A stretch of DNA of 64,000 bases from Euryarchaeota archaeon UBA19 (lineage in GTDB: Archaea; Thermoplasmatota; Poseidoniia; Poseidoniales; Thalassarchaeaceae), in NCBI GenBank assembly GCA_002502175.1, contig DAPQ01000075.1:9170-73169 (forward strand), in the 5' to 3' direction. The notes beneath the pieces were generated by a model. It made no database searches and was not told the DNA's origin. It saw only the letters and a program-made list of their open reading frames with translations. Both the position numbers and the translations under genes were made by a program. Shown in pieces: positions 55,944 through 64,000 of this stretch (its first letter is position 1; each line of letters starts with the position of its first letter).

Positions 55944-57497
55944 ATGGCGAAGCTTTGGGTGATGTTCTTCACATCTCTTTTGCTAGTATCAGCAATGAAT
56001 TTCTATGCAGTAATTCGAGAACCCGATTTGATTGAAATTGACGAGATTCATGAATATCCAAGGGAATCTGTGAAGGTCAAAGGAGTGCTAACTAGCTTCG
56101 TAGTAGACCCATATGGTGAACAAGCGGACAGAATTGATCTGCAAGTTCGAGAAGTGGATGGTCACTCGGTAGTCGAGGTTCGATGGTTTGTAGACCGAGA
56201 TAATGAGATTCCTCCCATTGGAACCATAATTACTGTAGAAGGTGAAGTCACTGAATGGAACGGTCGAATTTGGTTGTCATCAAATGGATACGGTGCAATA
56301 GTGTGTGCTGATTCCGATTGTGACTCTGTAGAATACACTGCTATGCAATTGGTCGAAGTTGCAATGAATCCACAGAACTTTGCTAACATGTCGGTAAAAG
56401 TAGATGGTTATTTGTCTGAATCTCTTGAACCGGATGTAACATATCATTCATTGAGCCTAATGGATAACCCATCCTATGGAAATGCAGACCATTTATTGTA
56501 CATGCAAGTGGAAGGGAGAGTAATCGATTGGATAGAAGCAGGAAGTCATGTGGAAGTTTCTGGGTGGCTACAATATGATCAGCGTTCCCTTCGCTGGAGA
56601 TTACTAGTGCAAGCAACCGCAATCGAAGTCCTAAACGAGGGATCGGTTGTTGACTTGTCATGGGAATTAGAACCCTACACACTGACCTATGAAGTTGGAA
56701 AGAATGTATCAATTGAAGGAACCGCAACCCAATCATCCGGCACTTGGTGGTTAATCGGAGATGCTCCGACTGACCGGCTCTGTTTACTGCCATCACAAGA
56801 AGATGTAGATGCAGGATTGGAGGGTATCGAACGGAAATGGTATGGTCGATTGGTCTGGTCAACAGATGAAGCAACCATCTGTCTTAGAGCGGATGGATAT
56901 ACGGCGGAAAATAACGCAGGTAATTTTGGAGATGACGTAACTCCTCTGCTAGATGTTGCTGAGAATCCATTTGATTATCTTAATCAGAACCATACATTCG
57001 AAGGATGGATAACTGACCCTATATCTCCAGATTATGACAAAGGATACGTCGGGGACGGCCCAGATTACTTCGCTCGCCAAACCAAACTGAGAATTCACCT
57101 AATTGGCGAGCATGCAGAATATATCGAAGGTGGTCAATCAATACGATTCAATGCGACAATCATTTGGTCAGAAAGCGAAGGACGAGTCATTCTTGAAGCC
57201 CGTTCTTGGACTCTAGGTCAGCCGCCATCGCCAAACACTCTGAACTGGGGGGATGGTTACAACTCCTGGAAATGGGATATTGGAAAGCTCGTTGTAATTA
57301 ATGGAGAGGCGATTATGGACGAGGACGGAAACCAATGGATTCAGAGATCTGGATCTGAAGAAAGGGTCTGTTTACTTGGGGACGGAACTGAGGCAAGTCA
57401 AACAGAGGGGCAAGGGCCTCTAGATTGGACTGGAAGATTATCTACCACAGAAGATTCTGTTGGGAATACAATGCAATTCTGTATAGATGTCAGATGA
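55944..57497 (+). CDS. Membrane-anchored protein with about five tandem OB-fold-like modules
   Basis: N-terminal anchor LWVMFFTSLLLVSAMNFYAVI. Five recurring units with a strand pattern like VKVKGVL...ITVEGEVTEWNGRIWL, VKVDGYL...VEVSGWLQYDQRSLRWRL, VSIEGTA...YGRLVW, HTFEGWI...FNATIIWSESEGRVIL and VVINGEA...WTGRL. Confidence 0.6.
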   Translation: MAKLWVMFFTSLLLVSAMNFYAVIREPDLIEIDEIHEYPRESVKVKGVLTSFVVDPYGEQADRIDLQVREVDGHSVVEVRWFVDRDNEIPPIGTIITVEGEVTEWNGRIWLSSNGYGAIVCADSDCDSVEYTAMQLVEVAMNPQNFANMSVKVDGYLSESLEPDVTYHSLSLMDNPSYGNADHLLYMQVEGRVIDWIEAGSHVEVSGWLQYDQRSLRWRLLVQATAIEVLNEGSVVDLSWELEPYTLTYEVGKNVSIEGTATQSSGTWWLIGDAPTDRLCLLPSQEDVDAGLEGIERKWYGRLVWSTDEATICLRADGYTAENNAGNFGDDVTPLLDVAENPFDYLNQNHTFEGWITDPISPDYDKGYVGDGPDYFARQTKLRIHLIGEHAEYIEGGQSIRFNATIIWSESEGRVILEARSWTLGQPPSPNTLNWGDGYNSWKWDIGKLVVINGEAIMDEDGNQWIQRSGSEERVCLLGDGTEASQTEGQGPLDWTGRLSTTEDSVGNTMQFCIDVR

Positions 57498-57501
57498 GGT
57501 G
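57496..57501 (+). promoter_or_regulatory. Shine-Dalgarno GAGGTG overlapping the upstream stop (TGAGGTG)
   Basis: GAGGTG is followed by 5 nt (ttgaa) and ATG 57507. This indicates translational coupling of the OB-module gene and the TctA-like gene. Confidence 0.6.
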
Positions 57502-57506
57502 TTGAA

Positions 57507-62039: not shown

Positions 62040-62058
62040 CGGCTGGCAGAGCCAGCCG
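62040..62058 (+). terminator. Hairpin CGGCTGG-CAGAG-CCAGCCG downstream of the CD36-like gene
   Basis: Perfect 7-bp stem with a 5-nt loop, 16 nt after the stop. A second small GC hairpin CGCG-CTTG-CGCG lies at 62063-62074. Confidence 0.35.
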
Positions 62059-62109
62059 TGGGCGCGCTTGCGCGAAGGGTTCAACCGTTGACCGCGAGAC
62101 GTAAGGTCA

Positions 62110-64000
62110 ATGGAAAGGGGTCCAGCAAGGCTAGCAGTGGCCATCATTGCTCTATTGACCATAAGTCTGCTTGGTCCCTCTCCAGTTTTACAATTAGATT
62201 CCTCTAATGAAAATCGAGAGACGGTAAAAAATTCCTCATGCGTAGTTTGTATTAACGAAATAATGCCTAATGCGGATGGCTCAGATCAAGGAATCTTTCC
62301 TCAGGGTGAATGGGTTGAGTTGTTAAATACCGGGTCTAGTTCTGTGAGTCTTGAGGGTTGGACAATTGTCGATATTGGCGGATGGACACATCCAATCAAT
62401 GAAACTAGTTGGGTAGGATTTAGTGATTTAACTACACCTTATCATATTGAAGCAGGAGCATACGCAGTTATTGCTGAAAATGAAATTGGAACTCTAAGAA
62501 TAAACAACGCTGGAGAGACTATTTTCCTGACAGATGAACAAGGTGTTGTAGCTGATGAAGTCACCACAGGGCAAGCGTCAAATGGAATTTCCAAAATACC
62601 ATCTAACGGAAGCGCGGAGTGGATTGACTCAGAACAATCAACCCCAGGAAGCCAAAATATTGGAGGTGTGGATGACGAAAATAATCCAGAAACGCCTGCT
62701 GATTTACAACCTTCAGAATGGAATGGAAAATATGATGTCAAGTTCACTCGTCTTATGCCGGGTGAAGTACCTAACCGGGATAACGATTGGTTTGAATTGA
62801 GTAATTTGGGTAATGAAGTTGCAAATTTAACCGGCTGGACCATAGAACGCATTAGGTCCACAACACCCTGGATATCCACATTCAACGAACTAGTGATACC
62901 TGCGGGAGGGTCGATTGTTCTAACCGAAAATCCGGACAACCTATTTTTGGATGGAGGTATATCTGCAATTGATGGGAATGTTGTGATGAACAATATGCCT
63001 TGGCTTGTCGATTCAGGAAGTGCTCTGCAACTAAAATCACCAAATGGAACTGTGGTTGATGCGGTTGTATACGGAGGCGGCGATGCTGAAATCGAGGGTT
63101 GGAATGGCGGCGCTATTTCAGTACCAGGGGATGGGACCCCGGGATTGATTTTGATGCGAGGCTCTGGCTGCGGAGATAATCCAGATACAGACACGGGTGA
63201 AGATTGGGAGTATAGATGGATTAGAATTGGAGCCTCAACCTTCTGTGATGGAGGAAAAATTACACTAGAAGAATCCTCTACAGTCTCATCTTCTATTGGT
63301 CCTGATACATCATTCAATGACTTAATGCACTGGATTGAGGATGCAGAAACATCGATTCATCTACATGTCTACCAATTTATGAGCCCGGACCTCACTACTG
63401 CATTACTGGAAGCAATAAATCGAGGTGTTTCTGTCACAATTCTACTTGAAGAAGGTATACTCGATGGAAGTAGTACAAAAAATAACCAAAGAGGTCATGC
63501 ACAAACTCTGCATGATGCTGGAGCAACCGTTCTTTGGATGGAGGACCCGAGTTTGATCAGTTCTCCGTACACTTACATTCACAGCAAGGTTGCTGTGAGG
63601 GATACGGAAAGTGTATGGATTTCATCAGGGAACTGGAAGGATACAAGCCTACCCCCAGATGGAATAGGTAATCGAGAGTGGTCTGTTTTTGTCAATTCGA
63701 TTTCCTTTGCTGAGCTAGTTATGTCTCGTCTTTCTTGGGACGAAAATCAGAATCACCTACACATCTCACCACACTCATCGAATCATGCACCAACCTCCGA
63801 TTGGGCGATGGACGAAAACAGTGGGGTCTCGTTACAAGCACCTACTACCCAACCATATTCTGGACCTTTGGAAATCCAACTGATGACATGTCCTGACGAT
63901 TGTGTTGATGGAATTATCGAAATGATTGACGCCGCTGATTCAACTATTGAACTTTCATTGCAATACTTAGACTTAGATTGGTATTGGGGATTCGGTGATA
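62110..64000 (+). CDS. Secreted lamin-tail-domain (LTD) + phospholipase-D-superfamily (HKD) protein; 3' end beyond window
   Basis: Absent from the ORF track (open to nt 64000). My translation from ATG 62110 gives the signal MERGPARLAVAIIALLTISLLG. LTD-like modules follow: CINEIMPNADGSDQGIFPQGEWVELLNTGSSSVSLEGWTIVD and VKFTRLMPGEVPNRDNDWFELSNLGNEVANLTGWTIE. The HKD motif is YIHSKVAVRDTESVWISSGNW (His codon nt 63580-63582), in the same frame as the ATG. Confidence 0.75.
   Translation, partial: MERGPARLAVAIIALLTISLLGPSPVLQLDSSNENRETVKNSSCVVCINEIMPNADGSDQGIFPQGEWVELLNTGSSSVSLEGWTIVDIGGWTHPINETSWVGFSDLTTPYHIEAGAYAVIAENEIGTLRINNAGETIFLTDEQGVVADEVTTGQASNGISKIPSNGSAEWIDSEQSTPGSQNIGGVDDENNPETPADLQPSEWNGKYDVKFTRLMPGEVPNRDNDWFELSNLGNEVANLTGWTIERIRSTTPWISTFNELVIPAGGSIVLTENPDNLFLDGGISAIDGNVVMNNMPWLVDSGSALQLKSPNGTVVDAVVYGGGDAEIEGWNGGAISVPGDGTPGLILMRGSGCGDNPDTDTGEDWEYRWIRIGASTFCDGGKITLEESSTVSSSIGPDTSFNDLMHWIEDAETSIHLHVYQFMSPDLTTALLEAINRGVSVTILLEEGILDGSSTKNNQRGHAQTLHDAGATVLWMEDPSLISSPYTYIHSKVAVRDTESVWISSGNWKDTSLPPDGIGNREWSVFVNSISFAELVMSRLSWDENQNHLHISPHSSNHAPTSDWAMDENSGVSLQAPTTQPYSGPLEIQLMTCPDDCVDGIIEMIDAADSTIELSLQYLDLDWYWGFGD

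Follow-up and report, generated by a model that had tools for sequence, protein, structure and literature searches.

Archaea, as far as we are aware, have no ComEC, and for this reason the route by which DNA passes the archaeal membrane is an unsettled question. The closest described system is that of Methanococcus maripaludis, in which MMJJ_13020, a single-transmembrane (TM) OB-fold protein, and the TctA-like protein encoded by the adjacent gene MMJJ_13030 are each essential for natural transformation, as is the membrane-bound secreted thermonuclease MMJJ_16440; in all three cases, an in-frame deletion abolished transformation and complementation restored it (PMC10133366, Fonseca et al. 2023). 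A TctA homologue is also essential in Methanoculleus thermophilus, and TctA has been proposed as the archaeal DNA transporter (PMC10133366); an earlier comparative study had guessed at a carboxylate carrier for the archaeal TctA family (PMC5898192). A second point of comparison is Xds of V. cholerae, a surface exonuclease with a lamin-tail domain (LTD) and an OB domain, of which the OB domain is required for activity (PMC6746945). Here, we analyze a gene cluster in a window of 64,000 nt (positions 9170-73169 of contig C73, DAPQ01000075.1) from the 1.39 Mb, roughly 80% complete genome of an archaeon whose relatives, as recovered by name, are Poseidoniales (marine group II archaea). In this order, the OB receptor, TctA channel and tethered nuclease that methanogens need for DNA uptake appear to be encoded side by side, together with a thymidine phosphorylase.

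The initial annotation of the window had described four consecutive plus-strand genes with spacers of 9, 108 and 85 nt, and had assigned their products, all placed in or outside the membrane, to the OB, TctA, CD36-like and LTD-phospholipase D (PLD) families. The coordinates and the junction sequence are as claimed there, hydropathy gives TM or signal/anchor segments in all four products, and each domain call passes profile or structure checks. Reading the contig past the window end extended the co-directional run by a fifth gene, g5. The features of the array within the window are the following:

55944-57497, plus strand: g1 (517 aa), OB ectoprotein, proposed DNA-capture subunit (AlphaFold2 model and Foldseek)
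57495-57509, plus strand: g1 stop, Shine-Dalgarno-like GGTG and g2 start, TGAGGTGTTGAAATG (read from the sequence)
57507-59162, plus strand: g2 (551 aa), TctA-family polytopic membrane protein, proposed import channel (PF01970)
59271-62024, plus strand: g3 (917 aa), CD36/LIMP-2-like two-TM ectoprotein, apparent lineage-specific insertion (PF01130, fold and synteny)
62110-64000, plus strand, open at the window end and continuing to window-equivalent 65157 (C73:71279-74326): g4, surface-tethered phosphodiesterase, proposed extracellular nuclease

The g1/g2 junction has the pattern TGAGGTG..ATG within its 9-nt spacer, and the stop-overlapping Shine-Dalgarno sequence is present as the initial annotation described it; the two genes are predicted to be translationally coupled.

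Homologues of g2, g3 and g4 were located in 121 genomes, 60 regions of 10-20 kb were mapped, and ~100 loci were read in total. Around g2, the order g1, g2, g4, g5 on one strand recurs in 19 of 20 loci from three families (f1, f2 and f3), with zero to two extra genes between g4 and g5. A scan of named genomes added, among the matches listed, 30 Poseidoniales loci; in 28 of them the PLD gene is no more than 3 kb away from TctA, and both exceptions end at a contig end. Where g2 and g4 are directly consecutive, the gap between them is mostly 18-80 nt, and in one locus they overlap. The full order, with the gene of a choice-of-anchor T surface protein (anchor-T) on the minus strand followed by g1 to g5, occurs in only three genera of f1. 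In f2, f3 and the deeper f1 genera, g3 is not in the cluster; its homologues in the latter two groups (28-36% identity) stand alone, and in three other genera (numbered g8, g12 and g13 in a series separate from the gene numbers) g3 lies beside the anchor-T gene with the other cluster genes not nearby. The synteny pattern therefore gives g1-g2-g4-(x)-g5 as the ancestral unit, (x) being the position of the extra genes. Judged by gene order, g3 appears to have entered the g2-g4 spacer later, within one sub-lineage. In other words, the region holds two unrelated things, an order-wide module of g1, g2, g4 and g5, and the inserted g3. Synteny over the ~100 loci rules out the four window genes as one conserved operon: of the single system proposed in the initial annotation, the OB-TctA-PLD order stands across Poseidoniales and is extended by the thymidine phosphorylase gene, and the CD36-like gene drops out, its position not being conserved and the gene itself being kept where the others are lost. 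We also considered g3 and anchor-T as a true conserved pair, which is ruled out by f2 and f3, where anchor-T stands divergently before g1 and g3 lies elsewhere; the adjacency of the two in genera g8, g12 and g13 is a remnant left after the loss of g1-g2 and g4-g5.

The pattern of gene loss also separates g3 from the module. TctA is missing in 20 of the 121 genomes and PLD in 20, with 18 genomes common to both; all 18 of these are also without g1 and g5, and most retain g3. The module is missing from every sampled member of genera g8 and g13, from most of genus g12, and from part of two further genera (numbered g5 and g4 in the same genus series). In the former of these two, genome G059 has the cluster genes on three contigs and its congeners G009 and G083 are without all four, so that a single contiguous deletion cannot explain every loss. 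The joint loss is a strong, not decisive, signal that g1, g2, g4 and g5 work together and that g3 does not.

For g1, a sequence-only profile searched against the PDB was uninformative (top match a cadherin, E 0.02), so a fold search was needed; by sequence, the protein reaches only a sub-threshold match to PF01336 (20 bits vs a cut-off of 27). Its AlphaFold model, built from a 22-sequence alignment (pLDDT 82.5), consists of one TM helix, in line with the single N-terminal TM segment given by hydropathy, and five OB barrels. Foldseek returned p204 HINab-dsDNA (8e-11), RPA70, POT1/CST, Teb1, RADX, LEF-3, SSB and P. abyssi (Pyrococcus) RPA, and the best PDB matches are exclusively tandem-OB nucleic-acid binders. 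Eight of the 36 invariant columns of g1 fall inside residues 5-27, which is the TM segment, and this conservation suggests a specific intramembrane contact, most simply with TctA. The putative partner, g2, is a polytopic protein by hydropathy, a clear member of PF01970 (3.5e-39, 135 bits vs a cut-off of 28.9), and is present in single copy with 55-99% identity across the order. PF01970 was also detected in the control genomes of M. jannaschii, M. acetivorans and H. volcanii. TctB and TctC (PF07331, PF03401) gave no match in the ~80%-complete genome, with the controls detected, and the g2 system is therefore not a tripartite tricarboxylate transporter. Family membership is thus what g2 shares with TctABC of Salmonella (TTT family), from which it differs in having an OB protein as its conserved partner in place of TctB and TctC; its substrate is probably not a carboxylate.

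The pairing of an OB protein with TctA extends well beyond Poseidoniales. The g1 profile has strong matches in Poseidoniales only, and weak matches to ~210-aa ORFs in other families of the phylum, each of which lies directly upstream of a TctA gene. The named-genome scan listed 80 loci, all from Thermoplasmatota, and the pairing counts that follow are counts among the matches listed: an ORF of TM+OB type lies upstream of TctA in 73 of the 79 loci with enough upstream sequence, and 72 of the 76 upstream ORFs that were scored carry an N-terminal TM segment. The g1 profile and a profile of the small proteins reciprocally detect each other's proteins. Across Thermoplasmatota, these partners of ~210-215 aa have two OB barrels; two of five pass the Pfam cut-off for a nucleic-acid-binding OB domain, and three of the five give sub-threshold matches to DUF4131 (19-22 bits vs a cut-off of 31.6), which we take to be the N-terminal (OB) domain of bacterial ComEC. 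Examples from Thermoplasmatota loci are:

L085:7491-8102: small TM+OB partner of TctA
L086:4922-5560: small TM+OB partner of TctA
L087:6221-6886: small TM+OB partner of TctA
L088:152-787: small TM+OB partner of TctA

Among the ~50 non-Poseidoniales loci listed, no PLD gene was found within 3 kb of TctA, which leads us to conclude that Poseidoniales acquired the nuclease link at the same time as their OB arm expanded from two barrels to five. The M. maripaludis pair has the same layout, an upstream single-TM OB gene and a PF01970 TctA-like gene in one putative operon, without TctB or TctC, and it likewise has a membrane-tethered extracellular nuclease as its third part and a proposed role in DNA transport into an archaeon without ComEC. 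Unlike g1, with its 517 aa and five OB barrels, MMJJ_13020 is a small protein; MMJJ_16440 has the thermonuclease fold, whereas g4 combines the PLD/HKD fold with lamin-tail domains and is encoded within the cluster. In addition, a thymidine phosphorylase is coupled to the putative nuclease in Poseidoniales. The bacterial ComEC/ComEA/EndA machinery follows the same logic of surface DNA receptor, processing nuclease and polytopic channel, and ComEC starts with an OB domain. However, its channel belongs to another family than TctA, and Pfam gave no match to the Competence (PF03772) or metallo-beta-lactamase domains in g1 or g2; the likeness is one of analogy, not homology.

The complete g4 ORF encodes 1015 aa, in the order signal/anchor, two LTDs (the first at aa 45-153), two PLDc_2 HKD modules, an acidic linker, a C-terminal TM segment and a cytoplasmic tail. 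The LTD match is 1.7e-31 on the window part and 9.9e-31 on the full protein, and the PLDc_2 match rises from 5.6e-15 on the window part to 1.2e-38 on the full protein, where it covers two stretches. A regular expression on the translation located both catalytic motifs:

63580-63633, plus strand: first HKD motif HSKVAVRDTESVWISSGN (aa 491-508)
just past the window end, plus strand: second HKD motif HNKGAIIDGESVLVGSMN (aa 696-713)

The second motif, which the initial annotation had placed beyond nt 64000, is thus present and intact, and both HxK(x4)D(x6)G(S/T)xN motifs are intact in g4 and in 27 of 28 orthologues. In a single-sequence search, the closest solved relatives of g4 were Nuc, Zucchini/MitoPLD and NucT. 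A family profile made from 11 orthologous catalytic regions ranked PDB entries as follows:

Nuc, nuclease: 2.8e-17
Zucchini, nuclease: 2.1e-15
NucT, nuclease: 1.1e-12
PssA, lipid enzyme: 1e-6
PLD3, exonuclease: 4e-5
PLD1, lipid enzyme: 2e-4
Streptomyces PLD, lipid enzyme: 1e-2

By this profile, g4 sorts with the Nuc/NucT/Zucchini nucleases, far above the lipid PLDs, which answers the earlier question of which HKD clade it belongs to; its matches to the NCBIfam models NucT and DrmC are under their cut-offs. Nuc (IncN plasmid, 1BYR), NucT (Helicobacter, 6EHI) and Zucchini/MitoPLD (4GGJ) are the best sequence relatives of both catalytic halves of g4, with HxK(x4)D(x6)GSxN intact. These relatives are single-HKD proteins of ~155-200 aa that dimerize, whereas in g4 the two halves belong to a single 1015-aa chain that also has two LTDs and membrane anchors. 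With Xds and the ExeM/NucH-type enzymes (LTD + OB + EEP), the module shares the combination of a surface enzyme, lamin-tail and OB modules with a phosphodiesterase, and, on the proposed reading, the conversion of extracellular DNA to nutrients (PMC6746945). The differences lie in the catalytic domain, which is EEP in Xds/ExeM and two-HKD PLDc_2 in g4 (no EEP family is among the Pfam matches of g4), so that the LTD is the only accessory domain in common; in the OB modules, which in Poseidoniales sit on a separate, channel-paired membrane protein; and in the archaeal host and the C-terminal TM anchor of g4. Domain content varies among the orthologues, with five or six LTDs in the f3 and deep-f1 versions. 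A same-genus orthologue of 1526 aa contains a PhoX alkaline phosphatase (1.3e-28) between its two LTDs; PhoX-carrying orthologues of ~1520 aa are found at L016:3664-8241 (same genus) and also in L020, L021 and L022. In the window's genome, where g4 is the short 1015-aa form, no PhoX was found. A fusion of phosphodiesterase and phosphomonoesterase would fit stepwise breakdown of nucleic acids better than phospholipid hydrolysis.

The ATG of g5 starts 4 nt before the g4 stop, outside the window. Its product is a thymidine/pyrimidine-nucleoside phosphorylase (NF004490, 457 bits vs a cut-off of 269; TIGR02644, 455 vs 409), and the AMP-phosphorylase models are far under their cut-offs. In other lineages, a 2OG-Fe(II) oxygenase gene (DIOX_N + 2OG-FeII_Oxy) stands between the PLD and thymidine phosphorylase genes, tightly packed or overlapping, and in family f3 the gene of a BaxI-like (BaxI_1) membrane protein is found there too:

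L068:10937-11953; L055:14190-15161 and 13401-14177: inserts between the PLD and thymidine phosphorylase genes (2OG-Fe(II) oxygenase; in f3 also BaxI_1)

Fungal thymine/thymidine hydroxylases fall in the same 2OG-Fe(II) oxygenase class, and a role in pyrimidine conversion is conceivable. Also in f3, an HD-domain protein (HD + HD_assoc_2, dNTP-hydrolase-like) is encoded between the anchor-T gene and g1 (L055:3707-5014, minus strand), and a GMP-synthase subunit gene follows g5. The surroundings of the cluster are rich in nucleotide metabolism.

On balance we hold it probable, if only just, that g1, g2, g4 and g5 encode a surface apparatus that captures, cuts and imports DNA, the product being mainly catabolized and its use coupled to thymidine breakdown. 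Gene order, co-loss, folds, motif integrity and promoter-like boxes are observed here, and DNA as the substrate, the species imported and the direction of flow are inferred. The module would most likely act on extracellular DNA, and perhaps on RNA too. Tethered by its one TM helix, g1 would bind nucleic acid at the cell surface with its five OB barrels, and the C-terminally tethered, lamin-tail-bearing g4 would cut DNA at a metal-independent two-HKD (Nuc-type) site, with the fused PhoX of some congeners additionally stripping phosphate. Paired with g1 through the conserved TM segment of the latter, g2 would pass a DNA strand or fragments through the membrane, and in the cytoplasm g5 would split thymidine, the DNA-specific nucleoside, into thymine and deoxyribose-1-phosphate. 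Because of this last step, imported DNA would mainly be food, as a source of carbon, nitrogen and phosphorus, and genetic transformation a possible by-product. The initial annotation had offered extracellular DNA as one substrate of its four-gene array; nuclease-side HKD modules, OB fold and synteny speak for that proposal in three of the four genes (g1, g2 and g4), and g3 has to be taken out of it. Only tentatively do we go further and suggest that marine group II archaea possess a dedicated "DNA-eating" machine around a methanogen-type OB-TctA pair; its makeup, which we likewise offer as a conjecture that could well be wrong, would comprise an arm of five OB barrels for capture, a DNA channel of the TctA family, a tethered LTD-HKD nuclease (PhoX-fused in some species) and a coupled thymidine phosphorylase.

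Several points weigh against DNA import and catabolism. The co-losses amount to few events on the tree (~4-5 lineages), and genes lying side by side readily disappear together. What connects g1 and g2 with the Methanococcus pair is their common Pfam families, their architecture and the order of the genes. The deposited name of Zucchini/MitoPLD is "cardiolipin hydrolase", and a close PDB relative, 7E0M, is named a "phospholipase", so that the nuclease specificity of g4 is not proven. The strong acidity of g1 (D+E 16.6%, K+R 6.6%) is unusual for a DNA binder; considering that the cytoplasmic g5 is equally acidic, we regard this as a proteome-wide trait. Finally, the route from nucleotide to thymidine is unaccounted for in the window's genome, since that genome is without PhoX.

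One further such point is that TctA relatives of known function carry carboxylates, as has been predicted for the archaeal family as well (PMC5898192), and it also speaks for the main alternative, an organic-phosphorus harvest without DNA import. Here g4, with PhoX where present, would act at the surface on dissolved nucleic acids or other phosphodiesters and set phosphate and nucleosides free, g5 would use nucleosides brought in by another carrier, and OB-TctA would be a solute (e.g., carboxylate) transporter and a historical neighbour. The PhoX fusion in g4 orthologues agrees with this, as does the occurrence of the OB-TctA pair across Thermoplasmatota without a PLD neighbour, from which it follows that the basic role of OB-TctA is independent of g4. 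However, a merely historical neighbourhood fits poorly with the joint loss of g1, g2, g4 and g5 in 18 of 18 genomes, including a genus with the genes on separate contigs, with the ancestral g2-g4 spacers and the one overlap, which imply co-transcription, and with the fact that the lineage in which g1 expanded from two OB barrels to five is precisely the one that acquired the PLD link; moreover, the OB-TctA pair has been connected with DNA uptake by genetics (PMC10133366). We consider this alternative unlikely, though it deserves to be kept in mind.

Strict genetic competence, in which intact single strands are imported for recombination, g4 is a strand-processing nuclease and g5 an unrelated housekeeping neighbour, strikes us as less probable still. 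In its favour, the OB, TctA and membrane-bound nuclease genes are all required for plasmid transformation of M. maripaludis (PMC10133366), and the sub-threshold DUF4131 matches of the small OB partners agree with it. Yet g5 is predicted to be translationally coupled to g4 and is lost together with the module, and both the PhoX fusions and the 2OG-Fe(II) oxygenase gene found elsewhere between g4 and g5 point to breakdown of DNA, not its preservation. Transformation in Methanococcus requires pilus genes.

We give very little credence to a role in envelope biogenesis, in which g4 would transfer or trim a phosphodiester-linked surface polymer, TctA would export or flip its precursor, and the neighbouring anchor-T and CDP-archaeol synthase genes, with a giant AglB further upstream, would make up a cell-surface island. 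Surface-protein and glycosylation genes are indeed abundant in the window and anchor-T is a conserved divergent neighbour, but whole genera are without the module and yet keep g3 and the anchor-T gene, outside f1 CarS and AglB are not conserved as neighbours, and envelope biogenesis explains neither the coupling to thymidine phosphorylase nor the PhoX fusion. Lipid scavenging, the other substrate considered in the initial annotation, with g4 as a phospholipase D freeing head groups or phosphatidate from exogenous membranes, g3 tunnelling lipid and TctA importing the product, can draw on the real CD36/LIMP-2 fold relationship of g3, on the phospholipases within the HKD superfamily and on the position of g3 between g2 and g4 in this genus, but it is largely refuted by synteny already and highly improbable overall: the PLD and CD36-like genes are linked in few genera only, which rules out a lipid module of the two, g3 lies outside the cluster in most of the order and is retained where g4 is lost, the g4 profile puts lipid PLDs far below nucleases (PssA 1e-6 vs Nuc 2.8e-17), and an RPA-like OB array, a thymidine phosphorylase and PhoX make no lipid sense as partners.

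If DNA import and catabolism by this module is the correct reading, the conservation of its linkage would lend independent comparative support to TctA-like proteins as the DNA importers long sought in archaea, the TctA channel would be an archaeal counterpart of ComEC drawn from an unrelated transporter family, and marine group II archaea would be consumers of dissolved ocean DNA. Marine group II is among the most abundant archaea of the sunlit ocean, and the ocean has a large pool of organic phosphorus and nitrogen in the form of dissolved DNA. In Poseidoniales, which are distant from the methanogens, uncultured and very abundant, the methanogen-type OB-TctA pair is locked into a conserved cluster with a putative surface nuclease and an enzyme of DNA-specific catabolism, and all four are lost together; this supports the proposal of a TctA-like DNA transporter from an independent direction and suggests that the everyday use of the OB-TctA system is feeding on dissolved DNA. 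The initial annotation had called the array previously undescribed. A role of OB-TctA in archaeal DNA uptake is already published (PMC10133366), and for the wider cluster the description as new holds as far as our literature searches reach, which returned no paper on an order-wide cluster with an LTD-HKD nuclease and a thymidine phosphorylase, on the five-OB expansion, on the co-loss pattern or on the CD36-like gene as an interloper, and none on Poseidoniales or Marine Group II in connection with TctA, lamin-tail domains, thymidine phosphorylase or natural transformation. The g1 ectodomain, the g4 ectodomain and the g1-g2 pair are clonable targets that come out of the analysis.

Although unlinked to the DNA module, g3 is itself a credible relative of the class B scavenger receptors CD36, SR-B1 and LIMP-2 (4F7B, 4Q4B, 5LGD). 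Its PF01130 match (30.1 bits vs a cut-off of 26.5) covers aa 73-187, corresponding to profile positions 54-150 of 463 only, and a g3 family profile searched against all PDB sequences returned LIMP-2 (2.5e-6) and CD36 (1.4e-3) alone. The AlphaFold2 model (pLDDT 81, pTM 0.70) has terminal TM helices, in agreement with hydropathy, and a beta core broken by a helical insert of ~410 aa (aa 158-570); with Foldseek, the top 13 matches are all LIMP-2 or CD36, at probability 1.0 over ~350 aligned columns and a TM-score of ~0.40 on the target. By profile and by fold, these receptors are thus the only significant PDB matches of g3, with which they share N- and C-terminal TM segments around a large ectodomain. 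In contrast to them, g3 is archaeal, has 917 aa and the ~410-residue helical insert, and shows ~12% identity and a TM-score of ~0.4 on the shared core. Of the 121 Poseidoniales genomes, 107 have CD36-like genes; family f3 has several CD36-like matching segments per genome, which are possible paralogues, and in one locus of those surveyed as L029-L054 (L031), two divergently oriented CD36-like copies adjoin. A literature search for CD36 in archaea or prokaryotes gave unrelated papers only. The position of g3 in the window says nothing about its function, and the gene deserves separate study.

Transcription signals around the genes were interpreted against the whole genome. The most enriched hexamer at -50 to -15 is TTCAAG (4.7-fold, 573 genes with at least 70 nt upstream), and the box class TT[CG]A[AT][GC] peaks at -30 to -26 from the ATG (30 vs a background of ~7, 435 genes with at least 100 nt upstream), which is the expected look of an archaeal TATA-like element with leaderless transcripts; from this peak, transcripts are predicted to be mostly leaderless. 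The promoter-like element of this genome is apparently TT(C/G)A(A/T)(G/C), most often TTCAAG, and differs from the textbook TTTAWA TATA box. Around the array we find:

55916-55921, plus strand: promoter-like box TTCAAG at -28 from the g1 ATG, also kept before g1 orthologues; leaderless transcript predicted
59227-59235, plus strand: conserved element CGCTTATTT, ~40 nt upstream of the g3 start codon, which may be a promoter or regulatory site belonging to g3 itself
62041-62074, plus strand: two GC-rich inverted repeats, GGCTGG-CAGAG-CCAGCC and GCGCGC-TT-GCGCG, between g3 and g4
62080-62085, plus strand: promoter-like box TTCAAC, 30 nt before the g4 ATG, at the genome-wide peak position

No box of the genome's type was found before g3; the element A(A/C)(A/G)CTTAT upstream of g3 orthologues is kept with either TctA or anchor-T as the upstream neighbour. 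For g2 and g5, there is no room for a promoter upstream, and before g4, AAGGGTT(C/G)AACC is conserved in the genera with the g3 insertion. Because the boxes before g1 and g4 lie at -28 to -30 and a separate element precedes g3, three transcription units are predicted here, g1-g2, g3 and g4-g5. The insertion of g3 would have split the old operon into g1-g2 and g4-g5, with g3 transcribed separately. The sequence GTTCAA(G/C)C, common to g1 and g4, was considered as a module-specific regulatory motif and ruled out, since it is the generic promoter-like box of the genome. In the first inverted repeat between g3 and g4, pairing is preserved by compensatory changes: in the orthologous spacers (GGCCGGCTTTGCCGGCC, AGCCGGCTACGCCGGCT), GGCTGG..CCAGCC becomes GGCCGG..CCGGCC and AGCCGG..CCGGCT. 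This repeat could be the end of the g3 transcript or an operator for g4.

Upstream of the array, two minus-strand features precede g1:

54628-55569, minus strand: choice-of-anchor T surface protein gene (NF041740, 1.2e-79), divergent upstream neighbour of g1, as in the f1, f2 and f3 loci
55713-55789, minus strand: tRNA(CAU) gene between the anchor-T gene and g1 (ARAGORN and Rfam RF00005, 73.9 bits)

Further upstream, the CDP-archaeol synthase gene (50870-51622, minus strand) and a 648-aa surface-protein ORF (51393-53339, plus strand) overlap by ~230 nt as listed. Considering that the orthologues of the latter align from about residue 86, the TTG start listed for it is probably too far upstream.

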